A DNA stretch of 20,000 nucleotides from an uncultured virus (IMG/VR IMGVR_UViG_3300020379_000594). Taxonomy: Duplodnaviria > Heunggongvirae > Uroviricota > Caudoviricetes. The stretch lies in IMG/VR virus record IMGVR_UViG_3300020379_000594; one strand, written 5' to 3'. Shown in pieces: positions 1 to 19,063 of this stretch. Made by a program: the position numbers and the translations under genes. Below the pieces are notes generated by a model. The model worked only from the letters and a program-made list of their open reading frames with translations, did no database searches and was not told where the DNA came from. Position 1 is the first letter of the stretch. Each line of letters opens with the position of its first letter.

Positions 1-2393
1 CTACAAAGAAAAGAAGTAAGTGGAAGACTCTTGACGGTCAACCTGTAGAACCAATCAAACCTGGCACAATCAAGGATTGTAGGGAGTTTATTGATAAGTA
101 TTCACAGGTAAAAAACTTCAATGTATATGGTAATGAGAGGTATGTGCATCAATATATCTCTGATAATTACCCAGAGAATGAGATCAAGTTTGATCTGAGC
201 AAAATTAATCTAGTAACTATTGACATCGAGGTTGCCGCAGAGAGTGGATTCCCCGATGTCTTTAATTGTGCAGAAGAATTACTTCTAATCACGGTACAAG
301 ATTACAATACTAAAAGAATTACTACCTTTGGATCGCGTCCATATAAGACCAATCCAAACAGAAAGAACTACTCTTACATTGACTGCCATAACGAGGAAGG
401 TCTGATCTATACATTCCTAGAGTGGTGGCAGAAACACACGCCTGAGGTCATTACAGGGTGGAACTGTGAACTGTATGATATCCCTTACCTTGTAGGTAGG
501 GTAGAACGTCTTATGGGTGAGAAGATGGCCAAGAAGTTCTCTCCTTGGGGCATTGTAAGAAAGAATGAAATCACAATAATGGGTCGGGCAAACATTGTCT
601 TTGATCTTGCAGGCATATCTGTAATTGATTACTTGGATCTATACAAAAAATCCCCTGCAACTTCAAACCAAGAGAGTTTCAAATTGGATCATATTGCTAT
701 GATGGAACTCGGTCAACAGAAGTTGGATCACAGTGAGTTTGACACATTCCGTGAGTTCTATACAAAGAACTGGCAGAAGTTTGTAGATTACAACATCGTT
801 GACGTGGAACTGGTTGACCGTCTTGAGGATAAACTCAAGTTGATTGATCTATGTTGCACTCGTGCCTATGACGCAAAGATCAACTTCACTGATGTTGCGT
901 TTCAAGTTCGCACATGGGATGCGATTATCTACAACTATCTCAAAAAGAAAAACATTGTGATCCCACAGAAGGATCGTAACAAGAAAGATGAGAAGTATGC
1001 TGGTGCGTATGTGAAAGAACCTAAGCCTGGTAAGTATGACTGGGTGGTATCTTTTGACTTGAACTCACTGTATCCGCATTTGATTATGCAATACAACATC
1101 TCCCCAGAAACACTACAGGAAAAGAAACATCCTAGTGCCACGGTGGATAAACTTCTCAATCAAGAGATTACTTTTGAGATGTACAAGGACTATGCAGTTT
1201 GTGCCAATGGTGCAATGTTTAGTAAGGACAAGAAAGGTTTTCTACCTGAGTTGATGGAGAAGATGTATAACGAACGTGTCATCTTCAAAAAGAGGATGAT
1301 CAAAGCAAAAAAAGCCTATGAAAAAACCCCTACTAAAGAACTTGAAAAGGAGATTGCGAGATGCAACAACGTCCAAATGTCCAAGAAGATTGCCCTCAAT
1401 AGTGCTTATGGTGCTATTGGTAATCAATATTTTCGCTATTACAAACTTGCGAACGCGGAGGCCATCACCTTATCTGGACAGGTATCAATCCGATGGATTG
1501 AGAATAAAATAAACCAGAAGATGAATACTATTTTAAAAACAAAAGATATCGATTATGTTATTGCTAGTGATACTGATTCTATTTACTTGCACATGGGTCC
1601 TTTGGTTGACCGTGTATACGAAGGGAGAGAGGCGGCTACTGAAAGCATTGTGTCGTTCCTTAACAAGGTGTGTGAAAAACAACTTGAGCCTTATATTGAA
1701 AGTTCTTACGAAGAATTGGCAGAGTACGTCAACGCCTACGATCAAAAGATGATCATGAAGCGGGAGAATATCGCTGATCGTGGTATTTGGACTGCAAAGA
1801 AAAGATATATTCTTAACGTATGGGATAGTGAGGGTGTAAGATATGAACAGGCAAAACTTAAGATCATGGGTATTGAAGCAATCAAAACTTCTACCCCTGC
1901 ACCATGTCGTAAGTTCTTGAAAGATGCCTTTAAACTTTTGATGTCTGGTACAGAAGATGAAGTGATTGATTATATTGAACAGTGTAGGGAGGAGTTCAAA
2001 TCATTATCGCCAGAGGAAGTTGCATTTCCTCGTAGTCTATCTAATGTGGAGAAATGGAAGTCATCCACAGACATGTATCATAAGGGATGTCCTATTCATG
2101 TTCGTGGTGCAATCTTATATAATCACTACACAAAGAAGAAAGAGTTGACCAATAAATATGCTGCTATTCAAAACGGTGAGAAGATCAAGTTCTGCTACCT
2201 AAAGACACCTAATTGGATGCACGAAAATGTTATATCTTTCATTCAAGATTTCCCTACGGAACTTGACCTAGATAAACATATTGACTACGAACTACAGTTC
2301 AATAAGTCGTTTATGGAACCTGTAAAGGTTATCCTTGATTGCATTGGTTGGGAGACCGAACGCAAGAACACACTTGAATCATTCTTCGCATGA
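1..2393 (+). CDS. gp43: T4-like family B DNA polymerase (gp43), 5' end outside the window
   Basis: The frame is open from nt 3 (TKKRSKWKTLDG...) into the tracked ORF. It has Exo I 'TIDIEV', Exo II 'GWNCELYDIPY', Pol motifs 'SFDLNSLYP', 'KIALNSAYG' and 'SDTDS', and a C-terminal clamp-binding-like 'TLESFF'. Confidence 0.98.
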   Translation, partial: TKKRSKWKTLDGQPVEPIKPGTIKDCREFIDKYSQVKNFNVYGNERYVHQYISDNYPENEIKFDLSKINLVTIDIEVAAESGFPDVFNCAEELLLITVQDYNTKRITTFGSRPYKTNPNRKNYSYIDCHNEEGLIYTFLEWWQKHTPEVITGWNCELYDIPYLVGRVERLMGEKMAKKFSPWGIVRKNEITIMGRANIVFDLAGISVIDYLDLYKKSPATSNQESFKLDHIAMMELGQQKLDHSEFDTFREFYTKNWQKFVDYNIVDVELVDRLEDKLKLIDLCCTRAYDAKINFTDVAFQVRTWDAIIYNYLKKKNIVIPQKDRNKKDEKYAGAYVKEPKPGKYDWVVSFDLNSLYPHLIMQYNISPETLQEKKHPSATVDKLLNQEITFEMYKDYAVCANGAMFSKDKKGFLPELMEKMYNERVIFKKRMIKAKKAYEKTPTKELEKEIARCNNVQMSKKIALNSAYGAIGNQYFRYYKLANAEAITLSGQVSIRWIENKINQKMNTILKTKDIDYVIASDTDSIYLHMGPLVDRVYEGREAATESIVSFLNKVCEKQLEPYIESSYEELAEYVNAYDQKMIMKRENIADRGIWTAKKRYILNVWDSEGVRYEQAKLKIMGIEAIKTSTPAPCRKFLKDAFKLLMSGTEDEVIDYIEQCREEFKSLSPEEVAFPRSLSNVEKWKSSTDMYHKGCPIHVRGAILYNHYTKKKELTNKYAAIQNGEKIKFCYLKTPNWMHENVISFIQDFPTELDLDKHIDYELQFNKSFMEPVKVILDCIGWETERKNTLESFFA

Positions 2394-2554
2394 CAAAATA
2401 CATAGTATGCTGGTCTGATGATGGACTATTTTCTGATAGACAGATGAAAGTCTTTGAATCAAGAGATCCAGCAAATTGGTTTGCACAAAGTATACAAAAG
2501 CAGTATAATGATGTTAAAGTATACTTAGCTAGAAAAGGAGAGTTTGATGACTAA
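2390..2554 (+). CDS. Small hypothetical protein, 54 aa (MTKYIVCWSDDGLFSDRQMKVFESRDPANWFAQSIQKQYNDVKVYLARKGEFDD)
   Basis: Translated by hand. ATGA overlap with the gp43 stop; it fills the gap exactly and its stop overlaps the next start. Confidence 0.75.
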   Translation: MTKYIVCWSDDGLFSDRQMKVFESRDPANWFAQSIQKQYNDVKVYLARKGEFDD

Positions 2555-3011
2555 GAAGAGAATACTTACTCTAGTCACAGGCGGTTTTGATCCTCTTCAT
2601 AGTGGCCACATTGCTTACTTCGAGCAAGCAAAAGATCTTACAAATTACCTAGTAGTGGGGTTGAACACGGAAGAATGGTTGACTAAGAAGAAAGGACAAT
2701 ACTTCATGTCATGGAAAGAACGTGCAGAGATCATTCGTCACTTGGATGTAGTTGATGCCGTGATTACAGTAGAGGATGATGAACATGGTTCCGCCTGTCA
2801 TGCAATCGAAAGATGTTTAGAGATCGCACAAACTGTTGTCTTTGCCAATGGAGGTGACCGTGGTAAAGGTAATACACCAGAGATGGATAAGTTTGGTGAT
2901 GATCCTAGAGTAGAGATGGAGTTTGGTGTGGGTGGAACGGATAAGAAAAATAGTAGTTCATGGTTGCTCCATAACTACTTTGAAAGACAAAGAAAAATAG
3001 TGGGGATCTAA
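2547..3011 (+). CDS. Cytidylyltransferase-like nucleotidyltransferase (TagD/RfaE-domain type, HIGH superfamily)
   Basis: Motifs 'VTGGFDPLHSGH' (HxGH), 'LVVGLN', 'ERAEII', 'FANGGDR' and a C-terminal 'KNSSS'. ATG at 2547 follows AAGGAG. Confidence 0.9.
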   Translation: MTKKRILTLVTGGFDPLHSGHIAYFEQAKDLTNYLVVGLNTEEWLTKKKGQYFMSWKERAEIIRHLDVVDAVITVEDDEHGSACHAIERCLEIAQTVVFANGGDRGKGNTPEMDKFGDDPRVEMEFGVGGTDKKNSSSWLLHNYFERQRKIVGI

Positions 3012-3094
3012 TGAACAACATAGGATTAGAAGTTGTATTCTGGACAATATTGTCAGTATATCTTCTTGCTAAATTTGGAGTCTTTAAGAAATGA
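3011..3094 (+). CDS. 27-aa single-pass membrane peptide (MNNIGLEVVFWTILSVYLLAKFGVFKK)
   Basis: Translated by hand. TAATG coupling upstream and ATGA coupling downstream; hydrophobic core with a basic C-terminus. Confidence 0.65.
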   Translation: MNNIGLEVVFWTILSVYLLAKFGVFKK

Positions 3095-3249
3095 ATTGTT
3101 GGCATTGCAATACTGAACTAATATGGGGTTCAGACTTTGACGCTGAAGATTACCATTGTGAAGATGAGTATTCTATAGTGACTAATCTTTCATGCCCTAA
3201 GTGTGAATCATTCGTTCAAGTGTTTTATCCAAACAAACATGACAAGTGA
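3091..3249 (+). CDS. 52-aa zinc-ribbon-like protein (CWHC...CPKC)
   Basis: Translated by hand: MNCWHCNTELIWGSDFDAEDYHCEDEYSIVTNLSCPKCESFVQVFYPNKHDK. Two CxxC pairs; ATGA-coupled start. Confidence 0.75.
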   Translation: MNCWHCNTELIWGSDFDAEDYHCEDEYSIVTNLSCPKCESFVQVFYPNKHDK

Positions 3250-3901
3250 AGTATCATGGGAAGCGTTTCAATTACCTAACCTTCCGATATATAAAACTAA
3301 ACTTAGTGAAGATTGGATGTCTTATCTTTGGTCTGTTGTAAAACAGGCGGAGAAAGATAATGTCAATAATAGTAACGATTACAGTTACAGACTTGCTGGT
3401 AATATAACTGGCAGTTTGGGATTGAAAGACCCTGATAACAAATTCAGAGATCAAGTTGTAGGTCCTCTAACACAAAGGTTGATAGATGAAGACCCAAAGC
3501 ATTACTTTCCTCCCATAGATATTGACCCAAAGTTGGATCACAAACTTACAACAGAGTTCAGATTAAATTGGTGGGTAAACTATCAATATCAAACTGAGTT
3601 CAATCCCGAACACGGTCATACAGGCATCACATCATTTGTGATCTGGATGAAGATCCCAACAGATTATGTGGAACAACACAATCTGCCATTTCATTCAAAA
3701 GCCGCATCAGACTTTCAGTTTACCTATACTGATGTTCTAGGAAACACTATTGAGTTTCCTATCTTCATGAGTCCAGAAATGGAAGGTGCTATGATGTTAT
3801 TCCCATCTAATCTACATCATCAAGTGTATCCATTTTATAACACAGATGAACCAAGAATATCAATCGCTGGTAATTTATTGTGGTCTGTGGTAGAATTATA
3901 A
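3239..3901 (+). CDS. Putative 2OG-Fe(II) oxygenase (cyanophage HxH type)
   Basis: Double-stranded beta-helix motifs 'WVNYQ...EFNPEHGHTG..SFVIW', 'LFPSNLHHQVYPF' and 'RISIAGN'. ATG at 3239 is preferred over GTG at 3203. Confidence 0.82.
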   Translation: MTSEVSWEAFQLPNLPIYKTKLSEDWMSYLWSVVKQAEKDNVNNSNDYSYRLAGNITGSLGLKDPDNKFRDQVVGPLTQRLIDEDPKHYFPPIDIDPKLDHKLTTEFRLNWWVNYQYQTEFNPEHGHTGITSFVIWMKIPTDYVEQHNLPFHSKAASDFQFTYTDVLGNTIEFPIFMSPEMEGAMMLFPSNLHHQVYPFYNTDEPRISIAGNLLWSVVEL

Positions 3902-3916
3902 CAGAAGTAAATCATT

Positions 3917-4918
3917 ATGGATTTTTTAAAAGAAATTGTAAAAGAGATTGGAGATGAGTACACCCAACTTGCCTCCGAGGCAGAATCGACTGAAGAATTT
4001 ATTGACACAGGTTCGTACATTTTTAACGGACTCGTATCAGGTAGTATATTTGGTGGTGTATCTAGGAACAAGATTACTGCTATTGCTGGGGAGTCTTCTA
4101 CTGGAAAAACTTTCTTCAGCCTCGCTGTCGTTAAAAATTTCCTTGACAATAACCCTGATGGGTATTGTTTATATTTTGACACTGAAGCTGCTGTCAATAG
4201 GGGACTACTTGAGTCTAGAGGAATTGATCTCCAAAGGCTCGTTGTTGTCAATGTGGTAACGATTGAAGAGTTTAGATCAAAGGCACTCAAAGCAGTAGAT
4301 ATATACCTTAAGACAGATGAAGAGAATCGCAAACCATGTATGTTTGTATTGGATTCTCTAGGCATGCTTTCTACTGAGAAAGAGATTCGTGATGCGTTAG
4401 ATGATAAACAAGTAAGAGATATGACTAAATCTCAACTTGTCAAAGGTGCATTTAGAATGTTGACTCTTAAACTTGGTCAAGCAAACATTCCACTAATCGT
4501 TACCAATCATACCTATGATGTTATCGGATCATACGTTCCCACCAAAGAGATGGGCGGAGGCAGCGGCCTCAAGTATGCGGCAAGCACAATCATTTATCTC
4601 AGAAAAGCTAAGGAAAAGGAAGGAACGGAAGTCGTTGGAAATATTATTAAAGCTAAGACACACAAGTCGCGTCTGAGTAAAGAAAACAAGGAAGTATCCA
4701 TAAGGTTATACTATGATGAACGTGGTTTGGATAGATATTATGGACTACTCGAACTAGGAGAACTTGGCGGACTCTGGAAAAATGTTGCTGGAAGATACGA
4801 AATCGACGGCAAGAAAGTCTACGCAAAGAAAATACTGGCTTCCCCCGAAGAATATTTTACTGACGAAGTTATGGCAAAGTTGGAGGAGATTGCAGGGGAG
4901 ACGTTCAGCTATGGATAA
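3917..4918 (+). CDS. uvsX: UvsX RecA-like recombinase
   Basis: Walker A 'GESSTGKT', 'YFDTE', Walker B 'FVLDSLG', 'VTNHTY' and 'MGGGSGLKYAAS'. Lies between gp43 and gp41. Confidence 0.96.
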   Translation: MDFLKEIVKEIGDEYTQLASEAESTEEFIDTGSYIFNGLVSGSIFGGVSRNKITAIAGESSTGKTFFSLAVVKNFLDNNPDGYCLYFDTEAAVNRGLLESRGIDLQRLVVVNVVTIEEFRSKALKAVDIYLKTDEENRKPCMFVLDSLGMLSTEKEIRDALDDKQVRDMTKSQLVKGAFRMLTLKLGQANIPLIVTNHTYDVIGSYVPTKEMGGGSGLKYAASTIIYLRKAKEKEGTEVVGNIIKAKTHKSRLSKENKEVSIRLYYDERGLDRYYGLLELGELGGLWKNVAGRYEIDGKKVYAKKILASPEEYFTDEVMAKLEEIAGETFSYG

Positions 4919-5453
4919 ATTCATCAAGACCTATGAGGTTTTTGATGAATCATTATGCAAATCTATCATAGAAATATACGAAAACTGTGAGAAAAAACAG
5001 AGAGTAGAGAATGGTGGAGTGCCTGATTTTACTCAGGTAAATTTAAACACGGCTGGTAAGTTTGATAAGTTTGTACAACTATTGTGTTATAAAACTGTAG
5101 ATGTAATAAAACAATATAAGAAAGATCTACCAGAATATGTGGAGTGGTTTCCTGATAGATTTTTCTTTGAAGAATTTAGAATCAAAAAGTATGATCCAGG
5201 CGATGACCAGTTTGGATTACATACTGATGTTCAAGATCATATGAGTGCAAAGAGATATCTTGCTTTTCTCTTTTATCTTAATGACGATTTTGTAGGAGGA
5301 GAGACTGATTTTCCTTACAATGAATTGACAGTTTCGCCTGAAACTGGTAAAGTGTTAGTATTCCCACCCACATGGCAATATCCACACAGAGGATATCCTG
5401 TCAAGGGCGGATCACCAAAGTACATCATGAGTACATATCTTCATTATCAATGA
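4911..5453 (+). CDS. 2OG-Fe(II) oxygenase, prolyl-4-hydroxylase-like
   Basis: HxD motif 'FGLHTDV', 'FLFYLND..GGETDF', 'VFPPTWQYPHRG' and 'KYIMSTY'. The likely start is ATG 4911, after GGGGAG. Confidence 0.9.
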   Translation: MDKFIKTYEVFDESLCKSIIEIYENCEKKQRVENGGVPDFTQVNLNTAGKFDKFVQLLCYKTVDVIKQYKKDLPEYVEWFPDRFFFEEFRIKKYDPGDDQFGLHTDVQDHMSAKRYLAFLFYLNDDFVGGETDFPYNELTVSPETGKVLVFPPTWQYPHRGYPVKGGSPKYIMSTYLHYQ

Positions 5454-6832
5454 TTGAAACTATTGAAAATACGATCATCAAGAATCTCATATTTAATGAG
5501 GATTATACTAGGAAGGTATTGCCTTTTCTGAAACCTGATTACTTTGATAAGACAACAGACAAGATTATATTTGAAGAGTGTGCAAGGTTCATTGTAGACT
5601 ATGACAAGTGCCCTACTGTAGAGATCCTCTCCATTGAATGTGAGAAGAGAAAAGATATCAATGATGATACCTACAAAGAAATTTTAGATTGCCTGAATCA
5701 GACAAGTAAAGAAGATGCAGTAGATGATTGGTTGATAGATACTACAGAGAAGTGGTGTAAAGAAAGAGCAATCTATCTTGCACTGGTCGAGAGTATCTCT
5801 ATTGCAGATGGTCATGACATCAAGAAAGGTGTTGATGCTATCCCTGCTATCCTATCAGATGCACTTGCTGTTGGGTTTGATAACCATGTTGGACACGATT
5901 ACCTAGAAGATTATGAGGAGAGATTTGACTTCTACCACAAGAAGGAAGATAGAATCGAGTTTGACCTCGAATTTTTCAACAAGATTACAAAGGGTGGCCT
6001 TCCAAATAAAACACTCAATATTGCTCTCGCTGGCACTGGTGTTGGTAAGTCTTTGTTTATGTGTCATGTCGCAAGCAGTGTGTTACTCCAAGGCAAGAAC
6101 GTATTATACATCACGCTTGAGATGGCTGAGGAGAAGATTGCTGAAAGAATTGATGCTAATCTTTTAAACATACCTGTACAACAGTTGACAGAGATTCCTC
6201 GTCAGATGTTTGAAACTAAGGTTACTAAATTGTCAGAAAAGACTCAAGGTAATCTTATCATCAAAGAGTATCCTACCGCTGCTGCACACTCAGGACATTT
6301 CAAAGGTTTGTTGAATGAACTTGCACTTAAAAAGTCTTTCAAACCTGACATTATCTTCATTGATTACTTAAATATATGTGCATCATCACGTTATAGGGCT
6401 GGTTCTAATGTCAACTCATACTCCTACATCAAAGCAATCGCTGAAGAACTTAGAGGCCTTGCAGTCGAAACAGATGTTCCCATCGTATCCGCAACTCAAA
6501 CCACTCGTAGTGGGTATAGTAACAGTGACGTTGATCTTACAGATACCTCTGAGTCATTCGGTCTTCCCGCTACTGCCGACCTTATGTTTGCTCTTATTTC
6601 TACGGAGGAATTAGAGGAAGTAAATCAAATCATGGTCAAACAGTTGAAGAATAGATACAATGATATCAATATGAATAAGAGATTTGTTATTGGTATTGAT
6701 CGTTCAAAAATGAAACTATTTGATTGTGACCAGAGTGCTCAGGATGATATAGTTGACAGTGGACAGGATGAGGAGTATAATAATGATGAATCTAAAAAGA
6801 TTAAAGACAAGTTCGCAACGTTGAAATTCTAA
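5450..6832 (+). CDS. gp41: T4-like replicative DNA helicase (gp41, DnaB family)
   Basis: Walker A 'AGTGVGKS', 'YITLEMAEE', 'IIKEYPT', 'IFIDYLNI', 'SATQTTR' and 'KQLKNRY'. ATGA-coupled start at 5450. Confidence 0.97.
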   Translation: MIETIENTIIKNLIFNEDYTRKVLPFLKPDYFDKTTDKIIFEECARFIVDYDKCPTVEILSIECEKRKDINDDTYKEILDCLNQTSKEDAVDDWLIDTTEKWCKERAIYLALVESISIADGHDIKKGVDAIPAILSDALAVGFDNHVGHDYLEDYEERFDFYHKKEDRIEFDLEFFNKITKGGLPNKTLNIALAGTGVGKSLFMCHVASSVLLQGKNVLYITLEMAEEKIAERIDANLLNIPVQQLTEIPRQMFETKVTKLSEKTQGNLIIKEYPTAAAHSGHFKGLLNELALKKSFKPDIIFIDYLNICASSRYRAGSNVNSYSYIKAIAEELRGLAVETDVPIVSATQTTRSGYSNSDVDLTDTSESFGLPATADLMFALISTEELEEVNQIMVKQLKNRYNDINMNKRFVIGIDRSKMKLFDCDQSAQDDIVDSGQDEEYNNDESKKIKDKFATLKF

Positions 6833-7236
6833 TGACTATTGATTTTAAAAGGTACGAGACATTCGTAGATGCCGTAACCTCTGACGCTTCCAAAGACTTT
6901 GTTAATCTCGCTGACCGTATGGTTGAGTTGGATGGACAGGGTGCGAACATTGAAAGACTTTTGACTGCTGCAGTAGGTATGTCTGCTGAAGCGGGTGAGT
7001 TCACTGAGATTGTAAAGAAGATGGTGTTTCAAGGAAAGCCTTGGAATGGTGCAAACAAACATCATCTTGTAACAGAACTAGGTGATATCATGTGGTATGT
7101 TGCAAACGCTTGTATGGCTTTGGACATTTCATTTGATGATGTAATTGCAACCAATGTTAAGAAACTGGAAAAGAGATACCCAGGCGGTAGTTTTGATGTA
7201 TTCTATTCTGAGAATAGACAGGAGGGAGACCTCTAA
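6832..7236 (+). CDS. mazG: MazG-like nucleoside triphosphate pyrophosphohydrolase
   Basis: ExxE...ExxD motifs 'AEAGEFTEIVKK' and 'ELGDIMWY', plus 'NVKKLEKRYP'. This is its usual position after gp41 in cyanomyophages. Confidence 0.93.
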   Translation: MTIDFKRYETFVDAVTSDASKDFVNLADRMVELDGQGANIERLLTAAVGMSAEAGEFTEIVKKMVFQGKPWNGANKHHLVTELGDIMWYVANACMALDISFDDVIATNVKKLEKRYPGGSFDVFYSENRQEGDL

Positions 7237-7239
7237 ATA
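7234..7239 (+). promoter_or_regulatory. T4-like late promoter core TAAATA
   Basis: CTAAATAG overlaps the mazG stop, 13 nt upstream of ATG 7253. Confidence 0.55.
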
Positions 7240-7252
7240 GTATCAAAAACTC

Positions 7253-10791: not shown

Positions 10792-10798
10792 GATACAC

Positions 10799-12550
10799 AT
10801 GAAAAGCTTTGAACAATTTGAATATGAACAGTCTCCAATAACTGAGATTGTTGGGGTGGATGTCTCAAAACGTTTTGCCCAAAAGAATAAAACTCAAGTT
10901 ACTACTAATTCCACCACTCAAGGAGCTAGATCTCCTGTACCTCCAAGGAACATGGAGGGTGGTGCCACCCCATCGAAGGCTCCTAGTATTCCTCAGAGGC
11001 CTCAGAGGCCTGGATATAGAAGATCTGATGGATCAAAGAAGCCTGGAATACAGGCAACTTTGGATAGGAATAAGGCAAAAGCCGCTGCCGCTGCAGGATC
11101 TAAGTCAGGACAAAGAAAACTTTCCGCAGCAGGCGGAACTGTAGCAGGATTTGCAAAATTCAGACCAGATACAGAGGATGCAACCACTGGAACTGGACTT
11201 GGAACTAACATGAGAGCTCTTGCTCGTAGAGGTAGAGCTACCGTGGCTGGTGGTATTGATGCTTACAAAAGGAAAAAGAAAGAACAAGAACAACAAGATT
11301 TACCAAAGAGAAGTAAAGTTACAGGATCAGGACAACAAACTGGTAAAACTGGTTCAACTGGAGTAAGTAGTTTACTAGGTAAAGCTGTCAAATCAATAGG
11401 AAAGAAAGCACTTGGAGTTAAGGATGACAAAGTAAAAACTACAGGCGGTAGGACTATCACAGGTGATGCTGTTAAGAAACCAGAGGTTAAGCAAGAAAAA
11501 AGATATAGAGAAGGTCAGAAAAGGAGACAAGATGCAAGAAAGACGGCAGAGGATAAGTATAGACAGTATAAAGAAAAACCAAGGAAACAAACCAGTAATG
11601 TAACATCCAAGTCACCACAACAGAGTATAGACTCTACGGCGCTGAAGAAGTTCAATACATCGCCTGATAATAAAATAGTCAAGAAACAAGAGAAGGTAGC
11701 ATCAAAAGACGATGCTGCTAGGAAACAGGTAGAGAAAGACTCTGGAGAATCTATTAAGGGTGGTAGTATTGTAAGATCTCCAGGCGGAAAAGTAGCAACA
11801 ACAGGATCAGCATCGGATGAAGCGAAGAAAAACTTCGATAAACTATTTCCAAAGAAGAATAAAAAACTTACTGGTTCTAAACCCGATCAACCTAAACTTA
11901 CATCCACTGATAAGAAAGGTGGAGAGACCGATTCTCCTATAGTGAAGGGAGCTATCTCAGCGGCCGAAAAAGAAAGTAAGAGAAGGAAGAAGGCTGATGC
12001 AGGCGCAGATAGATTGATGTCTGCAATGAGGAAACAAGGAAAGAAAGATGATGCGACTCCACAAAGTAAGGCAATCACTGTCAAGGCCACAACAGTACCC
12101 AAGAAAAAAGAAGAGAAACCAAAAGAACAGAAACTTAAGAGACCTAACGTAAGAAGTTACAAAGGTGATGAAGCGGGATATAGGAAAGCACAAGCTGCAT
12201 ATAATGCCCAAAAACCTGAGAACAAAACTAAGAAAACCACACAAGGAAGACCTAAAAAAACAGAAGTCAAGGAGGCAACTAACTTCATCAAAGCAGAACA
12301 GGAAGCAAAGAGAATGGGTAGGAGAAAAATGAGAACCTATAAACAGATGAAGGAGGATGAAGCGAGAGAAAGAGCAATCAACAAACTTAAGCAAAAGAAT
12401 GAGTCATACTCTGATTGGCGTGAAGAATTTCTATGGGAGATAGATAAGAAGTATCCAGATAAGGTAAAAGAAATCAAACCTATGAGTGGTAAAAATACAA
12501 TCATCATCAACCCAGAAGATGAATCCGCTAAATATAAGAGAGGTTACTAA
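10799..12550 (+). CDS. Lys-rich, low-complexity 583-aa hypothetical protein (probable virion-internal or DNA-associated protein)
   Basis: Very basic, with almost no hydrophobic core. N-terminus MKSFEQFEYE; C-terminal 'ESYSDWREEF...KNTIIINP'. Confidence 0.7.
   Translation: MKSFEQFEYEQSPITEIVGVDVSKRFAQKNKTQVTTNSTTQGARSPVPPRNMEGGATPSKAPSIPQRPQRPGYRRSDGSKKPGIQATLDRNKAKAAAAAGSKSGQRKLSAAGGTVAGFAKFRPDTEDATTGTGLGTNMRALARRGRATVAGGIDAYKRKKKEQEQQDLPKRSKVTGSGQQTGKTGSTGVSSLLGKAVKSIGKKALGVKDDKVKTTGGRTITGDAVKKPEVKQEKRYREGQKRRQDARKTAEDKYRQYKEKPRKQTSNVTSKSPQQSIDSTALKKFNTSPDNKIVKKQEKVASKDDAARKQVEKDSGESIKGGSIVRSPGGKVATTGSASDEAKKNFDKLFPKKNKKLTGSKPDQPKLTSTDKKGGETDSPIVKGAISAAEKESKRRKKADAGADRLMSAMRKQGKKDDATPQSKAITVKATTVPKKKEEKPKEQKLKRPNVRSYKGDEAGYRKAQAAYNAQKPENKTKKTTQGRPKKTEVKEATNFIKAEQEAKRMGRRKMRTYKQMKEDEARERAINKLKQKNESYSDWREEFLWEIDKKYPDKVKEIKPMSGKNTIIINPEDESAKYKRGY
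12529..12534 (+). promoter_or_regulatory. T4-like late promoter core TAAATA within the end of the upstream CDS
   Basis: CTAAATA ends 22 nt upstream of ATG 12557. Confidence 0.45.
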
Positions 12551-12556
12551 AGAACC

Positions 12557-12817
12557 ATGTTAATTAAACCAATGGCACCACAGACCACCTTAGCGTCTGC
12601 AACTAATGTGAGTTTAGCAAAGGCGGTTCACATTGTGAACACTAATGGTGCTGCAGTTGTAATCATAAGATCTGATGCCAATGACGTTGGTATTGGTAGT
12701 TTCACTTTGCCTTCTAATCAGTCTGCACAGGTAGATAAAGATGGTACAGATAAACTTAGTGCATCCGCAAATGGTGGTGATGTAAAGGTAACAAAGATCG
12801 CTTTCAACGTATCCTGA
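12557..12817 (+). CDS. Small beta-rich hypothetical protein, likely virion-associated
   Basis: 86-aa ORF rich in Ala/Ser/Val/Asn, preceded by a late-promoter-like motif. Confidence 0.7.
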   Translation: MLIKPMAPQTTLASATNVSLAKAVHIVNTNGAAVVIIRSDANDVGIGSFTLPSNQSAQVDKDGTDKLSASANGGDVKVTKIAFNVS

Positions 12818-12831
12818 TATAGTCAGTGAGT

Positions 12832-12875
12832 CCACACATAACTAGTGGTTTATACTTAGTGTGGTATAATAAATA
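12832..12875 (+). promoter_or_regulatory. Extended -10 sigma70-type promoter (TGgTATAAT) with an overlapping late TAAATA and an upstream CCACAC...GTGTGG inverted repeat
   Basis: CCACAC at 12832-12837, GTGTGG at 12859-12864, TATAAT at 12865-12870 and TAAATA at 12870-12875. Confidence 0.6.
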
Positions 12876-12899
12876 GTGATGAATGGAGTTGAAACTATC

Positions 12900-13061
12900 A
12901 TGTCCCATTACACACTAGGTTGGCACGACCAAAAGAACGAACACCATGAAATTGGTGAATATGCTTCAGACGCATTTGAAGCAGCAAGAAACGCAAGAGA
13001 GGATGTTCCCTATCTACAGGAACATCCTTTTTCTTTGGATTTTATTAAGGAGGTAAAATGA
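12900..13061 (+). CDS. 53-aa His/acidic hypothetical protein, first gene of the PTOX cassette
   Basis: MSHYTLGWHDQKNEHHEIGEYASDAFEAARNAREDVPYLQEHPFSLDFIKEVK, with GGAG upstream of ATG 12900. Confidence 0.75.
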   Translation: MSHYTLGWHDQKNEHHEIGEYASDAFEAARNAREDVPYLQEHPFSLDFIKEVK

Positions 13062-13150
13062 AAAGTTTACCGATAGCATCCACTATAATCATATTAGGAA
13101 CAATTACAGTAGCTATTATTTACTTACCACAAATTGCCTACGCATTATGA
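13058..13150 (+). CDS. 30-aa hydrophobic peptide (MKSLPIASTIIILGTITVAIIYLPQIAYAL)
   Basis: Translated by hand. Strong SD (AAGGAGGT) and ATGA overlaps at both ends. Confidence 0.75.
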   Translation: MKSLPIASTIIILGTITVAIIYLPQIAYAL

Positions 13151-13650
13151 AACAATTTAATACAATCGTATTAAGTGTAACCATATCAATCCTTGACTTC
13201 CTTTACCGCAACAGACCTTTTCAAAGATTCTGGGTGTTGGAAGTCATAGCAAGAGCACCCTATTTTGCATTTATCAGTGTGTTACATTTTCGTGAATCCC
13301 TTGGACTCAGGGGTGATGATCATATATACTTGATGAAAGAACACTTCTATCAGGCACTCAATGAAACAGAGCATTTGGAAGAGATGGAACGTAGGGAGGG
13401 AAATAAACATTGGATCGACCGTTTCTTTGCCAAGCATCTTGTTTTGGTTTATTATTGGATCATGGTTGGGTATTATCTCATTGATCCTGTGGACGCTTAC
13501 GACATCAACATGAAGATTGAGAAGCACGCATTTGAAACTTACACAAAATACTTAAGTGTACACCCAGAAGATAAAAAGATACAAGAGATCGCACAAGATG
13601 AATTGGAACATGCAAGAGAATTAAAGGAGGCAATGAATCTAATAGGATAA
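13147..13650 (+). CDS. ptoX: Plastoquinol terminal oxidase (alternative oxidase family, di-iron)
   Basis: 'RFWVLEVIARAPYFAF', 'NETEHL' (ExxH), 'IEKHAFETY' and 'IAQDELEH' (ExxH). Short picocyanobacterial/cyanophage form. Confidence 0.95.
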   Translation: MKQFNTIVLSVTISILDFLYRNRPFQRFWVLEVIARAPYFAFISVLHFRESLGLRGDDHIYLMKEHFYQALNETEHLEEMERREGNKHWIDRFFAKHLVLVYYWIMVGYYLIDPVDAYDINMKIEKHAFETYTKYLSVHPEDKKIQEIAQDELEHARELKEAMNLIG

Positions 13651-13703
13651 TAAAAGAAATATAAAGTTGATAGATAGTATATAATTATCATTATTATTAG
13701 TAA

Positions 13704-14003
13704 ATGTTATCAACTCAATATCGTCTCCGTTTGGAAGCAATATGCAAAGACATTGCATCAGGAACAGAAGTCAGCATAGATGATATGATATGGGCTCAGA
13801 AATTAGCAAAAGCAAACACCTCAGCAAGAGGGATGTTACAACAGGCTAGAAGAATGACACAGAATCCAAATGATTCTTTTCTGAATAACTTGAATATAGG
13901 AGACCCCGATTCAAGTAACCACCGTAGGGGTTTCGGTTCACCAGACGAGATCGTAGACTGGTTCCATCAAGAGAGATCAGATGACTGGCGACAAAGAGAT
14001 TGA
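13704..14003 (+). CDS. Cyanophage hypothetical protein
   Basis: 99-aa ORF with an ATG start after an AT-rich intergenic region; ends 'DDWRQRD'. Confidence 0.75.
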   Translation: MLSTQYRLRLEAICKDIASGTEVSIDDMIWAQKLAKANTSARGMLQQARRMTQNPNDSFLNNLNIGDPDSSNHRRGFGSPDEIVDWFHQERSDDWRQRD

Positions 14004-14259
14004 TCCTAAGTTTTATCGTTCCCCTCAAGGGGTTGTTTATGAAAGAAATCCAGAACCAAGATACCCAAGAGTTATTGCAGTCTTCACACCCAGTTCACAC
14101 GACACTAGCTGGTTATATTGCAGAGAAGATGGCACATATTACTGGGAACATGCGAGAAAGAACGAAGGTATTAAAAAAGAGGATGTAGATGGATTACAGT
14201 TAGATCTATTTGGTCATCCTATACTAACTAAAGAGTTCATATTGAGATCAATACTATGA
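13981..14259 (+). CDS. Hypothetical protein
   Basis: 92-aa ORF overlapping the previous stop and ATGA-coupled to the next ORF. Confidence 0.65.
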   Translation: MTGDKEIDPKFYRSPQGVVYERNPEPRYPRVIAVFTPSSHDTSWLYCREDGTYYWEHARKNEGIKKEDVDGLQLDLFGHPILTKEFILRSIL

Positions 14260-14414
14260 TAGTCTGGAGTATTATATGGATGATTGTTATACTGCTGGTT
14301 GCAGTTTCTATTTTAATCTACTATATTATAAGATATGACCATTTTGTTCCGAATGATTTTGCTCACTCTCATGACAGCCATGCCAGTCATGGCGGGTCCG
14401 ATAGTGGAGAATGA
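14256..14414 (+). CDS. 52-aa membrane protein with a His-rich tail
   Basis: Translated by hand: MIVWSIIWMIVILLVAVSILIYYIIRYDHFVPNDFAHSHDSHASHGGSDSGE. ATGA-coupled start. Confidence 0.6.
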   Translation: MIVWSIIWMIVILLVAVSILIYYIIRYDHFVPNDFAHSHDSHASHGGSDSGE

Positions 14415-14586
14415 TCTATACGATCAACTTTATGAAGCGTTTGAAGACGCAAGAAATGAAAGGCGGAAACGATGGAGAACTTCCCCAGAAGACTCCATAA
14501 ATAAAGCACTGATGGAGTTTTACTATGGGAGCAATGACCCCACCGTCACGGAAGAGTTGTTACAACTTCCGAGTGACGAAAATTAA
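14353..14586 (+). CDS. Hypothetical protein with a signal-peptide-like N-terminus
   Basis: MILLTLMTAMPVMA-GPIVE...; the start is uncertain (14335 or 14353). It overlaps both neighbours. Confidence 0.55.
   Translation: MILLTLMTAMPVMAGPIVENDLYDQLYEAFEDARNERRKRWRTSPEDSINKALMEFYYGSNDPTVTEELLQLPSDEN
14498..14503 (+). promoter_or_regulatory. T4-like late promoter (CATAAATA)
   Basis: 21 nt upstream of the nuclease ATG at 14525, followed by a GGAG SD. Confidence 0.55.
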
Positions 14587-14986
14587 TAGAGTAGTTGATG
14601 GAGATACTATTGACGTTACTATTGACCTTGGATTTGATCTGACAAAGAAAGAAAGAGTTAGGGTCGCTGGTGTTGACACACCTGAGAAAAGAACTAGAGA
14701 CAAAGAGGAGAAAGCTCTTGGAATTGATGCGACGAATTGGCTCAAAGAGAAACTCCAGACGGCTGTGGCTGGTGATGATGATCTCATTATCCGTACTGAA
14801 CTTGTCGGTGGCGTTGGCAAGTACGGCCGTCTTCTTGGCTGGTTATACATTGGGGACGAACGTGTCTCAATCAATGAAGAAATGATCGGTGAAGGGTACG
14901 CCTGGCCATATGATGGCGGCAAAAAACAAAAAGATTTTGAGGAACTAAGAGTTCTTCGTAGATCTCGTGGAACATTAGTGGAGTAA
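14525..14986 (+). CDS. Thermonuclease (SNase-like) endonuclease
   Basis: 'RVVDGDTIDV', 'RVRVAGVDTPE', 'GKYGRLLG' and 'INEEMIGEGYA'. Confidence 0.92.
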   Translation: MGAMTPPSRKSCYNFRVTKINRVVDGDTIDVTIDLGFDLTKKERVRVAGVDTPEKRTRDKEEKALGIDATNWLKEKLQTAVAGDDDLIIRTELVGGVGKYGRLLGWLYIGDERVSINEEMIGEGYAWPYDGGKKQKDFEELRVLRRSRGTLVE

Positions 14987-14989
14987 ATT

Positions 14990-15184
14990 ATGTTATTTTC
15001 AGTATTAAATGTAGTAGAAGCATGGAATGAAATCTCTTGGGCAGATGCAATTCCTTTTACACTTGTTCTTATAGGTCTTTACTGGGTAAAGGTAAAGATA
15101 GATACCTCACTTGGATCTATTAATAAGAAGCAATCAAAACAATTAAAGAGAATTATCAAAGAGGCAATAGAAGAAACTAAATGA
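14990..15184 (+). CDS. Small membrane protein
   Basis: 64 aa with one hydrophobic segment (AIPFTLVLIGLYWV) and a basic tail; ATGA-coupled to the next gene. Confidence 0.7.
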   Translation: MLFSVLNVVEAWNEISWADAIPFTLVLIGLYWVKVKIDTSLGSINKKQSKQLKRIIKEAIEETK

Positions 15185-16281
15185 AAGTAGCCATAGTCGG
15201 TGCTGGCACAGCGGGACTATATTGTGCAGTATCTCTTTTAAAATCACTACCCAAGTTTGCTAAGGTGGATTTAATATACAGCAATGTTATAAGTCCTATT
15301 GACATTGGTGAATCTACTTTACCAATCTTTCCTCGTTCCTTGGGGGTTGGTGTTGATTATGTACATCATCTTGATTCTCAAGAACTGGATTCTACTACTA
15401 AGTATGGTATTCAGTTTAAGAATTGGAATGGTAATAAGTTCTTGCCATTTGTTTCTGGAGAGTATGGTATTCAGTTCGATACTACTAAGTTTCCTGAGTT
15501 TGTATTACCCAGACTCAGTAAAATGTATCCAAACTTCTCTGAGAAGGTCAGAACTATAAAAGAAATGAAGTCTTTGGGTAGAAAGGTATCTTTGGATGGC
15601 GAAGAATATGACTTTGTAGTGGATTGTAGAGGATATCCAGAGGATTATTCTGATTATATTATTAGTGATAACGTTTACTTAGACTCAGCGATTGCGGTGA
15701 GGTCATACACACCAGGCGACTGGGAATATACCTATCATATTGCCCATAAACATGGGTGGATGTTTGGTTTACCACTACAAAATAGAACTGGTTGGGGATA
15801 CTTATACAATTCTAAAATAACATCTCAGTTAGAAGCTCAGGATGATGTATCAAGGATACTAAATGAGTATCAGATTGAGTTCCATAGTAGAGATTGCAGA
15901 GAGTTCTCCTTTAAGAACTACTATGCTAAGAGTATAGTCAATGAAGATGGTAATATATTTGTCAATGGCAATAGAGCCTTGTTCTTAGAACCAATACAGG
16001 CCACATCATTGGGATGTTACGGTCTTATCAATGAGATGATTGTAGATTTTATATTGGACAACAAAGAACCCGATCAATATACCTGTATCATGGAAGAGGT
16101 TATCAGATTTATCAATTTGCATTACTACAAGGGTTCTGATTTTGATTCTCCTTTCTGGAATACTGCCTCGGAAGGATCAAAGAAACTATTTGGTGATACA
16201 GATCCTCGTGACTATCCTTGGCAGTTTGTTCTTGATTGGAATCCACAGTTTACACAGAAGATGTTTGATCATTTTCTCTAA
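15181..16281 (+). CDS. Tryptophan-halogenase-like flavin-dependent enzyme
   Basis: 'VAIVGAGTAG', 'IGESTLP', 'TKYGIQFKNW', 'FVVDCRG', 'GWMFGLPLQNRTGWGYLY', 'FLEPIQATS' and 'LHY...DSPFW'. Confidence 0.88.
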   Translation: MKVAIVGAGTAGLYCAVSLLKSLPKFAKVDLIYSNVISPIDIGESTLPIFPRSLGVGVDYVHHLDSQELDSTTKYGIQFKNWNGNKFLPFVSGEYGIQFDTTKFPEFVLPRLSKMYPNFSEKVRTIKEMKSLGRKVSLDGEEYDFVVDCRGYPEDYSDYIISDNVYLDSAIAVRSYTPGDWEYTYHIAHKHGWMFGLPLQNRTGWGYLYNSKITSQLEAQDDVSRILNEYQIEFHSRDCREFSFKNYYAKSIVNEDGNIFVNGNRALFLEPIQATSLGCYGLINEMIVDFILDNKEPDQYTCIMEEVIRFINLHYYKGSDFDSPFWNTASEGSKKLFGDTDPRDYPWQFVLDWNPQFTQKMFDHFL

Positions 16282-16317
16282 ACTGGTCTTATATATAGTG
16301 TAACTTGCTATAAGATT

Positions 16318-16506
16318 ATGACTAAATTTTTACTGCCTATCGCTATCAACGTTATCAACAAAGCGGTAGACAAGATCCCAGAAGACCTAGAAGAAAAACT
16401 AAAGGTATTTTTGATTGGATTACTCAAGAAAGCGGCTGCCAAGTCAGGCAACAAAGTAGATGACCAGTTAGTAGATGCTTTGGAAAAAGCCTTATTGGAT
16501 AAATAA
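16318..16506 (+). CDS. Hypothetical helical protein
   Basis: 62-aa ORF ('SGNKVDDQLV'), preceded by a TATATA variant of the late motif. Confidence 0.7.
   Translation: MTKFLLPIAINVINKAVDKIPEDLEEKLKVFLIGLLKKAAAKSGNKVDDQLVDALEKALLDK
16500..16505 (+). promoter_or_regulatory. T4-like late promoter (GATAAATA)
   Basis: Overlaps the end of the upstream gene; a GGAG SD precedes ATG 16541. Confidence 0.65.
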
Positions 16507-16540
16507 ATCTAGAAAGTAGTCTTAAATTGGAGAAAAGCCC

Positions 16541-17104
16541 ATGCCTCTTTGGGGAGCAACCGACTCAGACGAGTCAAAGCCTAAGTTTCTGACCGACGAA
16601 CAGAAGAAGCAATGTTTTGCTACAAAGTCTGGTTGGGTGTTGGAAAATGGTGCATTAACTGGTAACGATAATCCTAATGCAGACCCAGAGATTCTGGTCG
16701 CAATCGGAGAACTCGCTACAAGTATCGGTGCTGCAGACATTACCGAAATTGAGTTCATCACAACATCATTTGACAAGTCAGATGGTGGAACTTTACAGGT
16801 AAGAGTAAGATTCAACGAAGCAGTTGATGTCACAGGCACACCACAACTTACAGTGGTCAATGACCAACGAGCAAACCATACACTGTCATATGCCTCAGGT
16901 ACAGGCAGTAATGAATTGGTGTTCTCACTCACAATCGCCGCTGGTAACGCAGCGACTTCTGCTGATGACGAACTATCAATAGGAGCAAACGCAGTTGCAC
17001 TTAACGGTGGAACAATTAAGGATGCTGGTACATCTACCAACTCCACAATTACTAATGTTGCTTCTATCGGAACTGCTGCTGGTACAATTACTGTTGTCGC
17101 ATAA
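16541..17104 (+). CDS. Probable virion structural protein (MPLWG N-terminus, Ig-like Thr/Ala/Gly-rich domain)
   Basis: 'MPLWG' start and 'VRFNEAVDVTGTPQL...YASGTGSNELVF...LNGGTIKD', an Ig-like beta-sandwich signature. Late promoter upstream. Confidence 0.75.
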   Translation: MPLWGATDSDESKPKFLTDEQKKQCFATKSGWVLENGALTGNDNPNADPEILVAIGELATSIGAADITEIEFITTSFDKSDGGTLQVRVRFNEAVDVTGTPQLTVVNDQRANHTLSYASGTGSNELVFSLTIAAGNAATSADDELSIGANAVALNGGTIKDAGTSTNSTITNVASIGTAAGTITVVA

Positions 17105-17135
17105 CCGACCTAGATAATACAGAATAAAATGATTG

Positions 17136-17507
17136 ATGAAGTTTTCTGAACTGAATGAAAATAACTATGTAATTTTTGCAATTAAGAATTACGAAAACCC
17201 TCACGCAGTCACTAAGGAAGATTTTGAAGAGGATCTGAAAAGATTCAAATGGGTAAAAAGGCTTTTGAAACGTTATAAAACTACTGGCGTTTTGAAAGCT
17301 CATTTACTTATTAACCACTTCATAATCCTTTATAATGTTTTTGGTGAGGCCGCCACACCTCTTCTATTTTTCAAGATAGATAAGGACTTATGGCCTGTTG
17401 TTAAAACGTTTGTGGTATACTTAGGAAGATTCCCTGAGTTTCCCAAATCGGCACTACATGATGTACCTATGGATGATACATGTTTACAGTGTCTTAAAGA
17501 ACTATGA
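17136..17507 (+). CDS. Conserved T4-like hypothetical protein upstream of primase
   Basis: 'FAIKNYENP...FEEDLKRFKWVKRL...LLINHFIILYNVFG'. ATG at 17136; TTG at 17133 is the alternative. Confidence 0.8.
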   Translation: MKFSELNENNYVIFAIKNYENPHAVTKEDFEEDLKRFKWVKRLLKRYKTTGVLKAHLLINHFIILYNVFGEAATPLLFFKIDKDLWPVVKTFVVYLGRFPEFPKSALHDVPMDDTCLQCLKEL

Positions 17508-17671
17508 AGACTTTTAAGGAATTTAATGAGATGATGACCGCTGGTACAGGTGGTTTTACTTCTGCTGCAGATTCCAAAGGTCCTGTTGCTGGATATGATT
17601 TACCTTTTGGTGGAATGATTAGAAGATGGTACAACGCTGCAAAAGCAACCTCAAAACGTAAAAAGAAATGA
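17504..17671 (+). CDS. 55-aa protein, positionally and compositionally like T4 gp61.1
   Basis: Translated by hand: MKTFKEFNEMMTAGTGGFTSAADSKGPVAGYDLPFGGMIRRWYNAAKATSKRKKK. ATGA overlaps at both ends. Confidence 0.75.
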   Translation: MKTFKEFNEMMTAGTGGFTSAADSKGPVAGYDLPFGGMIRRWYNAAKATSKRKKK

Positions 17672-18105
17672 GCGAAAACGCCAGTATCAACACAGCTATA
17701 TTAGAAAGATTAGAAAAAGTAGTAGATTCTTTACAGGATAACTCCGTAAAGATGGGACAACTGCTTGCGGTTCATAATGAAAAGCTGGACAAGCAAGATA
17801 GGATAGATGCCGTACTATTCGAGAAGGTGGAATCTCTTCATAGGGAACTTAACCGTTCGACTAAAGAGATTAAGACAGGATGTGAGAGAGATATAATGAA
17901 GGTAGAAGAACGTCTGAGGATGATGGAGAAGAAGATGTGGACAATCGCTGGTGGTATCGGTGTCATATCAGTTCTCGTCAGTCCTATGGGTCAGAAAGTT
18001 ATACAAGGGTTGCAGAATAATCAATCATCTGTTATACTAGGAGTCGAACGAGTAGTCAGCATTGAACCTAGTAGACAGCAAATACATAAGTCTGGTATCG
18101 TCTAG
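17668..18105 (+). CDS. Coiled-coil protein with a C-terminal hydrophobic segment
   Basis: Heptad-rich N-terminal region followed by 'WTIAGGIGVISVLVS'. Overlaps the primase start. Confidence 0.75.
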   Translation: MSENASINTAILERLEKVVDSLQDNSVKMGQLLAVHNEKLDKQDRIDAVLFEKVESLHRELNRSTKEIKTGCERDIMKVEERLRMMEKKMWTIAGGIGVISVLVSPMGQKVIQGLQNNQSSVILGVERVVSIEPSRQQIHKSGIV

Positions 18106-19063
18106 ACTCCAAAAGTTTACTAAGAAGAGTAGAGGATTATATAATTTTAGATGCCCTTATTGTGGGGATTCTAGTAAGTATAAGAATAAAGCGAGGGGAT
18201 TCTTATATCCTATAAAAAATGATTATAATTTTAAGTGTCATAACTGTGGCGTTTCTAAGACACTTACTAATTTTCTTCGGGATCAGGATACTGTTTTGCA
18301 CAAGCAGTATATTATGGAGAGGTATAAAAAAGGTACTGTGGGACTGGGATCTAACACTCCTGTACCTAAATTTGACCTACCAAAACCAGTATTTATTAAA
18401 GACAAATTTCGTATCGATCTAGAAAATATCGTTAGTCTAAATAAATCACACCCCGCTCGAATATACCTAGAAGAAAGTAGGAAGATTTCTAGTAAAACAC
18501 TAGAAAATTTGTACTACTGCAATAATTTCAAAGAGTGGACTAATGCACAAAAGCACACGTTTGATGATGTCAAAAATGATGAACCGAGAATCATCATTCC
18601 GCTTAGGTACAAAGGTACACTTGTAGGATACCAAGGGAGATCTTTGCTCCCTAGATCCAAGATCAAATATATTACGATCATGTTGGAGGACGATGCTCCG
18701 AAGATTTATGGTCTCGATGATATCAATACTGGAAAAACTGTTTACGTCACGGAAGGACCATTTGACTCCACATTCATCCCTAATTCAATCGCAATGTGTG
18801 GAGCGGATGGTGATGTCTCCAAGTGGGGAATCACTAACCCTGTATGGATATATGACAATGAACCAAGGAACAGACAAATAGTTGAAAGACTTGCCACCAC
18901 TATCGATAGAGGTGATAGAGTCGTAATCTTCCCTAAGAATATTCTTGAAAAGGACATAAATGACATGTATCTTAGTGGACAAAGTGTGCAAAGAGTGGTA
19001 GACTCGAATATCTACCAAGGTTTAGAAGCCAAATTAAAATTACAAGCCTGGAAACGAGTATGA
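18062..19063 (+). CDS. gp61: T4-like DNA primase (gp61)
   Basis: Zn-binding 'CPYCGDS...CHNC', 'RIIIP', 'GYQGR' and TOPRIM motifs 'VTEGPFDS', 'YDNEPRN', 'KDINDM'. TTG start. Confidence 0.96.
   Translation: MNLVDSKYISLVSSRLQKFTKKSRGLYNFRCPYCGDSSKYKNKARGFLYPIKNDYNFKCHNCGVSKTLTNFLRDQDTVLHKQYIMERYKKGTVGLGSNTPVPKFDLPKPVFIKDKFRIDLENIVSLNKSHPARIYLEESRKISSKTLENLYYCNNFKEWTNAQKHTFDDVKNDEPRIIIPLRYKGTLVGYQGRSLLPRSKIKYITIMLEDDAPKIYGLDDINTGKTVYVTEGPFDSTFIPNSIAMCGADGDVSKWGITNPVWIYDNEPRNRQIVERLATTIDRGDRVVIFPKNILEKDINDMYLSGQSVQRVVDSNIYQGLEAKLKLQAWKRV

Follow-up and report, generated by a model that had tools for sequence, protein, structure and literature searches.

Virulent phages are known to purge restriction palindromes from their genomes. 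Here we describe a form of such avoidance that depends on flanking bases, found in a 20,000-nucleotide stretch of DNA from an uncultured virus (IMG/VR record IMGVR_UViG_3300020379_000594; this whole stretch is called the window below). We propose that it is the footprint of a mark placed at GCY by a phage DruA-like GNAT, represented by SSSM7_173 of Synechococcus phage S-SSM7. Ordinary restriction-site avoidance involves the same synonymous purging of palindromes; here the purging is conditional on the flank, which would give away the motif at which the phage marks its DNA.

According to the accessible text of Burke et al. 2021 (PMC8256090), phage C5-methyltransferases mainly methylate GpC[C/T]. 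With or without TET, these systems have the same GCY motif with a free 5′ base that we find here as a footprint only, whereas a PF00145 methylase was not detected in S-SSM7, G002, Sf-FS3 or HTVC008M. Phage Mu Mom, as described in the available part of PMC13219725, is predicted to resemble our candidate in its GNAT fold, its encoding by a single phage gene and its proposed post-replicative anti-restriction marking. Mom, in that account, modifies adenine within SAS using Gly-tRNA, whereas a GCY footprint needs no adenine, and our candidate is a 380-amino-acid protein of the DruA/DUF4338 type that matches the DruA profile and not the Mom profile (PF25680). A 73% identical orthologue of SSSM7_173, open reading frame (ORF) 152 of phage S-SCSM2R, has been named 'methylcarbamoylase mom' and likewise proposed, from its predicted structure, to be an anti-restriction modifier (PMC12801897). 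The accessible portion of that paper assumes adenine modification and states no motif, whereas our footprint implicates the C:G pair of GCY. The DruA likeness of Synechococcus phage proteins is noted in the available text of the Phold preprint (10.1101/2025.08.05.668817). In contrast to Druantia type I, the phage gene stands alone: its neighbours in S-SSM7 are gp44, a gene for a 104-amino-acid hypothetical protein and gp62, with no druB–E/DruE helicase cluster. The literature we searched, with most subscription journals outside its reach, contained no report of this footprint, of a motif or activity for a phage DruA-like protein, or of a GNAT acylating cytosine or guanine in phage DNA. Our contribution is to connect the footprint with a motif and a gene, and to set a methylase control beside them.

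Restriction sites in the window survive beside GC steps

The window derives from a T4-like cyanophage and, across 88% of its length, shares 86.6% identity with S-SSM7 (Lipsvirus); its genes include gp43, uvsX, gp41, mazG, PTOX, gp61 and nrdA. A preliminary description had reported that CCGG is absent and that each of 15 CCWGG sites is preceded by G or followed by C, and a recount bore this out. CCGG numbers zero, and the 15 CCWGG lie at exactly the same positions (60, 1026, 5196, 7180, 7862, 8864, 9068, 9752, 9863, 11009, 11042, 11780, 14901, 15712 and 19047; span 60..19051), every one (15/15) as GCCWGG or CCWGGC. All six CCAGG sites are CCAGGC, read in frame as CCA-GGC, as had been described. 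Synonymous-codon shuffles, which the same description had named as a check, never reproduced the pattern in any of three modes of 1,000 shuffles each, one of which preserves the next base. Sites with neither flank (HCCWGGD, called unshielded below) numbered 0 against 14.5–15.6 expected, with 0 of 1,000 shuffles as low in each mode, and CCGG numbered 0 against 10.7–16.3 expected, with zero copies in 0 of 1,000 shuffles per mode. The HCCWGGD minimum across 2,000 additional within-gene shuffles was 6. Against the 15 shielded CCWGG observed, the codon shuffles expect 6.2–7.2, beside about 15 unshielded, in agreement with the earlier estimate that chance would shield about one site in three. The reported absence of CCSGG is correct (recount, 0) but weak alone (2.4–3.4 expected, P = 0.03–0.08), being a consequence of the absence of CCGG.

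By codon frame, 13 of the window's CCWGG are Pro-Gly pairs and two are Ala-Trp (GCC-TGG). All 13 Pro-Gly pairs in window genes are shielded, either by a GGC codon or by a preceding codon that ends in G. The shielding rule is wider than CCWGG, which the preliminary description had missed. All seven CTGCAG, which we take to be PstI-type sites, are GCTGCAG (6968, 8793, 8988, 11091, 12651, 16731 and 17565; span 6967..17570); 3.3 unshielded copies would be expected and none is seen (P = 0.026). Likewise, all 11 CCCGC/GCGGG sites (span 1760..19620) are CCCGCY or RGCGGG, with 0 CCCGCR against 3.3 expected (P = 0.028); each of these two sites alone reaches only P of about 0.03.

The same rule holds genome-wide in close relatives

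We used two genome-wide references, the complete 233-kb genome of S-SSM7 and G002, a 231-kb, 99% complete genome about 91% identical to the window and 86% identical to S-SSM7. The CCWGG context rule, for which a repeat in related cyanophages had been proposed, was found again in both. S-SSM7 has 0 CCGG, and its CCWGG overlap a GC step in 196 of 206 cases and GGWCC in the remaining 10 of 10. In G002, 208 of 215 CCWGG lie at GC and 6 of the 7 others at GGWCC, and its five CCGG are all GC-flanked. When both strands of the two genomes were counted together, CTGCAG was found unshielded 0 times (167 expected) and shielded 114 times, and CTCGAG 0 times (39 expected) and 14 times. For CCATGG the counts were 6 unshielded (114 expected) and 66 shielded, and for CCTAGG 6 (76 expected) and 42; the exceptions to these last two (6 sites) all overlap GGWCC. 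CCCGAG obeys the same flank rule too. The second, rarer shield at GGWCC is real: it accounts for 16 of 16 exceptions to the GC flank rule in S-SSM7, and the background of such overlap is 197 of 2,701 sites in genomes that do not avoid them. ATGCAT, GTGCAC, GGTACC, TTCGAA and GACGTC are absent from S-SSM7 and G002.

Codon choice follows the same pattern. Glycine after proline, where no G precedes, is encoded by GGC in 100 of 108 cases in S-SSM7 and 109 of 114 in G002, compared with 9–10% GGC overall; in 27 other genome samples the GGC share of Gly after Pro is 0–22%. CCWGG avoidance is restricted to this clade, in which 6 of 262 sites in 34 loci are unshielded, five of those at GGWCC; sister groups hold many unshielded CCWGG (for example, 270 of 334 in Sf-FS3). 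Short stretches rich in unshielded CCGG/CCWGG were seen in the clade contigs L383 and L384 and at the end of L368, and are probably host DNA or chimeric ends. CAATTG and GGSCC are missing from S-SSM7 and from the window and occur 19 and 22 times, respectively, in G002, a contrast that may reflect a recent shift in restriction pressure.

The shielded unit is the C:G pair of GCY

Site contexts indicate that the shielded unit is the C:G pair formed by the cytosine of GCY, which is the guanine of RGC on the other strand. We draw this from three observations: the inner GC of TGCA-centred sites (ATGCAT, GTGCAC) gives no rescue, such sites being absent; the next base is Y every time after GAATGC (55 of 55, S-SSM7 and G002) and nearly every time after CCCGC (49 of 50, S-SSM7); and the base 5′ of GCCWGG is unconstrained (T 135, C 117, A 89, G 47). 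The window agrees, its 11 CCCGC/GCGGG sites placing the shielded pair at the C of GCY and the G of RGC. The free 5′ base rules out RGCY as the motif in this lineage. Absence of YGCGCR was dropped as a marker because YGCGCR is also depleted in genomes lacking the DruA-like gene (DSL-LC03, 0 of 66; S-PM2, 3 of 135).

The preliminary description had held that selection purges CCNGG/CCGG outside GC, through either an HCCWGGD-like nuclease or a GC/GCC-directed cytosine modification under which overlapping sites are protected. The shielding modification is strongly supported and can be sharpened to GCY/RGC plus GGWCC; the nuclease is unsupported. Given that one flank rule governs at least six unrelated sites, a single shielding modification is the better account. 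From the footprint and its motif, both of which are directly observed, we infer that the DNA is modified, and some GCY mark very probably exists in this lineage.

Phages with C5-methylases show a matching footprint

S-B43 was the only genome in our set that lacks the DruA-like gene and holds CCGG in GC context only (0 unshielded, 77 expected; 7 shielded), and it carries a C5-methylase. As a positive control we took 80 viral loci around relatives of this enzyme, mostly T4-like replication clusters, and dereplicated them to 35 clusters. CCWGG was present in 33 of the 35, and in 26 of these 33 it occurred in GC context only (80 sites). C5-methylase phages thus share the CCWGG footprint, and therefore cytosine marking at GC can give it. 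GAATGC and CCCGC are not avoided in the control, in which GCY and GCN are indistinguishable, and S-CRM01, the second C5-methylase carrier, avoids none of the relevant sites. No DruA-like gene lay within 10 kb in any of the 80 loci. A search for C5 or N4 methyltransferases, suggested earlier for this phage, came back empty in two complete or near-complete close relatives: Pfam models for C5, N4/N6 and Dam methylases matched nothing in S-SSM7 (complete) or G002 (99%). A profile built from 120 phage C5-methylases, searched unfiltered against all six frames, also gave no match in S-SSM7, G002, Sf-FS3 or HTVC008M.

A DruA-like GNAT is the candidate writer

A Pfam scan covering 90 of the approximately 319 S-SSM7 proteins yielded two candidates, a Mom-family protein (SSSM7_282) and the DruA-like protein SSSM7_173. 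The gene for the latter (380 amino acids; S-SSM7 147240–148379) lies between gp44 and gp62 in the clamp-loader cluster. It falls outside the window and was seen in relatives: in S-SSM7 it lies 4–5 kb upstream of the counterpart of window base 1, near which the window opens in the gp43 DNA polymerase gene (3..2393, + strand, 5′ end truncated by the window edge). It is present on seven gp43 loci of 85–95% identity that extend far enough upstream. SSSM7_173 matches Pfam DruA (DUF4338, PF14236) over residues 102–204 (E = 1.4e-11; 44.5 bits against a cut-off of 27), and the likeness was also found by PADLOC (E = 8e-6) and Atlas (0.98). In a structure model built from a 92-row alignment, the predicted fold is that of a GNAT: the top Foldseek matches are all GNATs, with VIA-align Z of 7–8.7. 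A sequence search of the PDB with the same alignment returned nothing under E 0.6. We counted 6,708 DruA-like relatives among 8,000 candidates scored. A tRNA-Gly(TCC) gene lies about 3 kb from the DruA-like gene, between it and gp43 (S-SSM7, L021:1564–1634; G002, 67692–67762); the G002 copy scores under the default ARAGORN threshold, and tRNA-Gly genes also occur in non-carriers.

We searched 31 genomes or records and found the DruA-like gene in 18 and the Mom-family gene in three. Among genomes that avoid CCGG, at least three survivors, GC-flanked, were present in 9 of 10 DruA-like carriers versus 0 of 11 non-carriers without a C5-methylase (Fisher P = 3e-5, with kin not independent). Not counted here are five carriers without CCGG avoidance, HTVC008M, in which avoidance is partial, and both C5-methylase genomes. 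GC-flanked CCGG survivors numbered 5 in G002, 12 in Sf-FS3, 8 in G003 (near-identical to Sf-FS3 and so not independent of it), 6 in S-SCSM2R, 6 in DSL-LC02, 37 in S-CAM9, 8 in S-CREM1 and 11 in G008, compared with 2 in the 11 non-carriers together. In the complete genome of S-CAM9, unshielded CCGG numbered 0 against 91 expected and shielded CCGG 37 against 50 expected. The DruA-like gene was the only one of 269 S-SSM7 ORFs found in all five complete positives and in 0 of 3 complete negatives. Dam was found in 10 of 13 non-carriers versus 1 of 14 carriers. This distribution, together with the absence of the DruA-like gene near C5-methylase loci, suggests that Dam, C5-methylase and the DruA-like gene are alternative solutions to one problem.

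The Pelagibacter phage HTVC008M has two DruA-like paralogues and two footprints. Its GCY footprint is seen at GAATGC (followed by Y in 26 of 28) and CCCGC (7 of 7). In the second footprint, GATC, GANTC and GTMKAC are kept almost only before CW; where no C follows, GATC numbers 0 against 316 expected and GANTC 0 against 138. Its 83 copies of GATC are all GGATC/GATCC. In S-B68 (L171–L173), which has a divergent homologue, AGCC numbers 30 against 245 expected and AGCT 22 against 284, an avoidance unlike that of other carriers.

We put the probability that a Mom-like acyltransferase, the DruA-like GNAT, marks C or G at GCY and thereby shields overlapping restriction sites at roughly 0.6. Several observations weigh against this assignment. 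The structure model is middling (predicted local distance difference test score, 65), and its match to Mom (8bv8; Z 7.4, root-mean-square deviation 4.2, 159 aligned residues) is tied with many ordinary GNATs. There is no sequence-level likeness to Mom: hhalign gave a probability of 0.6% for SSSM7_173 against the Mom-family protein of the same genome. The positives were initially chosen for carrying the gene, and its presence in all of them is partly circular. The carriers are mostly one clade, offering about four independent contrasts (losses in P-SSM2 and DSL-LC03; S-CREM1 and HTVC008M outside it), of which S-CREM1 is ambiguous: seven of its eight survivors are GGCCGG and AGCGCT is absent, which may reflect GGCC marking. 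The carriers S-SM2, Sf-CH8, S-B68, G004 and S-SRM01 show no CCGG avoidance and give no information either way. S-T4 keeps two unshielded CCGG beside five GC-flanked ones, and S-SSM7 itself has no CCGG even in GC context (0 against 37 expected). For eight of the 11 negatives the sample spans only 100–120 kb, the window's own DruA-like gene is deduced from relatives, and YGCGCR is depleted in non-carriers as well. Finally, codon tests for a mutational signature disagreed: NAG before C was more strongly depleted in carriers (median 0.22, n = 16) than in non-carriers (0.52, n = 11; P = 2e-4, kin not independent), and NGC before Y went in the opposite direction.

Alternative explanations

It is unlikely that the mark is ordinary 5-methylcytosine at GCY, with its source in the host or in a phage methylase that is too divergent or too recently lost to be recognized, and with the GNAT merely sharing ancestry with the footprint. 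GCY is the exact C5-methylase motif given in the accessible text of PMC8256090, C5-methylase phages show the same footprint, GNAT carriers are largely one clade and about 229 of the approximately 319 annotated S-SSM7 proteins fall outside the Pfam scan. A divergent enzyme would nevertheless have to escape the 120-sequence profile in all six frames of four genomes, and a lost one would not leave 0 leaks across lineages 86% identical. A host enzyme is hard to reconcile with phages of the same host, WH7803, of which S-SCSM2R and S-T4 have the footprint and S-PM2, Syn33 and S-SCSM1 lack it, or with the footprint in a Pelagibacter phage; GTDB genomes gave no close relative of the phage methylase, in a search that reached close relatives only.

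That the guanine of RGC is marked instead, by the GNAT or by another system such as deazaguanine exchange, seems improbable to us. Both bases of the pair leave the same footprint, guanine has an acylatable amine, and there are phage systems that modify G within a GGC motif. Against this, the identical footprint of cytosine methylases points to C in the major groove, and no deazaguanine-pathway gene is named in the S-SSM7 annotation or in the 90-protein Pfam scan, although DpdA was not searched for directly.

We give still less credence to the 207-amino-acid Mom-family protein (PF25680; SSSM7_282) as the writer of the shield. Its gene is present in S-SSM7 and G002 and is 89–100% identical among clade contigs, and the third carrier, DSL-LC03, keeps GGCC only within GGSCC (0 against 67 expected otherwise), so that the protein may explain the GGWCC/GGNCC context. 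Yet the gene is absent from the footprint-bearing Sf-FS3, S-CAM9, S-SCSM2R, DSL-LC02, G008 and HTVC008M, DSL-LC03 has it and lacks the GC footprint, and in G011, which has a 59% homologue, no CCWGG is rescued by GGWCC (0 of 5). In addition, Mu Mom requires adenine, according to the available part of PMC13219725, and GCC has none. In DSL-LC03, the 43 retained GGCC are all in GGGCC/GGCCC, and the Mom-family gene adjoins an ORF annotated as a type II restriction endonuclease.

One or more nucleases of degenerate specificity such as HCCWGGD, making modification unnecessary, would formally fit the window alone, and the phage may itself encode a nuclease (window 7253–8512). This is very improbable, however: one and the same peculiar exclusion would have to apply to CTGCAG, CTCGAG, CCCGAG, CCATGG, CCTAGG, CCGG, GAATGC and CCCGC alike, and a second motif, GGWCC, is common to the 16 exceptions in S-SSM7. 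A codon-pair or mutational bias without nuclease selection is hardly credible, even with 13 of the 15 window sites being Pro-Gly pairs, given that the codon shuffles, including the next-base-preserving mode, never match the pattern, that GGC is otherwise rare and that sister lineages of similar composition, such as Sf-FS3, are rich in unshielded CCWGG.

Other reading frames in the window

The possible phage nuclease is a 419-amino-acid ORF (7253..8512, + strand) assigned to phrog_2496, a family of unknown function, with a feature match of 0.93 to a cluster in which 19% of members have RE_HaeIII. It bears what we take to be a PD-(D/E)XK-like motif, and among 27 genomes it has a full-length match in S-SSM7 and G002 only. 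It may offer a lead on who cuts, that is, whether the host alone or partly the phage. At 10799–12550 the window has a single 583-amino-acid basic, low-complexity ORF where the S-SSM7 annotation has two genes (SSSM7_196 and SSSM7_197).

Proposed mechanism and implications

In the mechanism we propose, phages of the Lipsvirus lineage (S-SSM7 and its kin) would meet enzymes that cut CCGG, CCWGG, CTGCAG, CYCGRG, CCATGG, CCTAGG, GAATGC, CCCGC and other sites, and would mark their DNA on the C:G pair of GCY, read as RGC on the opposite strand. Where the end base of a site coincides with a marked pair, the site would be shielded and retained. Synonymous changes would remove all other copies, and sites beyond the reach of shielding (ATGCAT, GTGCAC, GGTACC, TTCGAA, GACGTC) would be eliminated outright. 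Because every Pro-Gly pair spells CCNGG, a GGC glycine codon or a G-ending codon before proline would be forced. The putative writer, the DruA-like GNAT of the clamp-loader cluster, would act after replication, like Mu Mom, and would acylate an exocyclic amine, either the cytosine amino group (N4 most likely) or that of guanine. The target would be C or G because GCC/GGC holds no adenine, and C (N4) is favoured because the footprint equals that of cytosine methylases. An adenine within SAS, the Mom target, does not fit: CCAGG includes SAS and is still lost where no GC flanks it.

A wider reading, whose odds we judge to be about even on these genomic comparisons, is that widespread phage DruA-like GNATs write a previously undescribed acylated cytosine (or guanine) at GCY. 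They would have converged on the C5-methylase motif and would replace those methylases or Dam in marine T4-like replication clusters, with paralogues writing other motifs (CCW, marked at its first C, in HTVC008M), and bacterial DruA may mark its own DNA in Druantia type I. Conditional site avoidance can reveal a phage modification motif from sequence alone and explains the forced choice of GGC in Pro-Gly pairs. Were the weaker claim alone to hold, there would still be a clean GCY-marking footprint in a lineage with no recognizable methylase. If the stronger one is true, a probably new base modification in abundant ocean viruses could be approached through one gene and a predicted motif in a phage available in culture, S-SSM7, and there would be a first handle on the function of DruA-family proteins.

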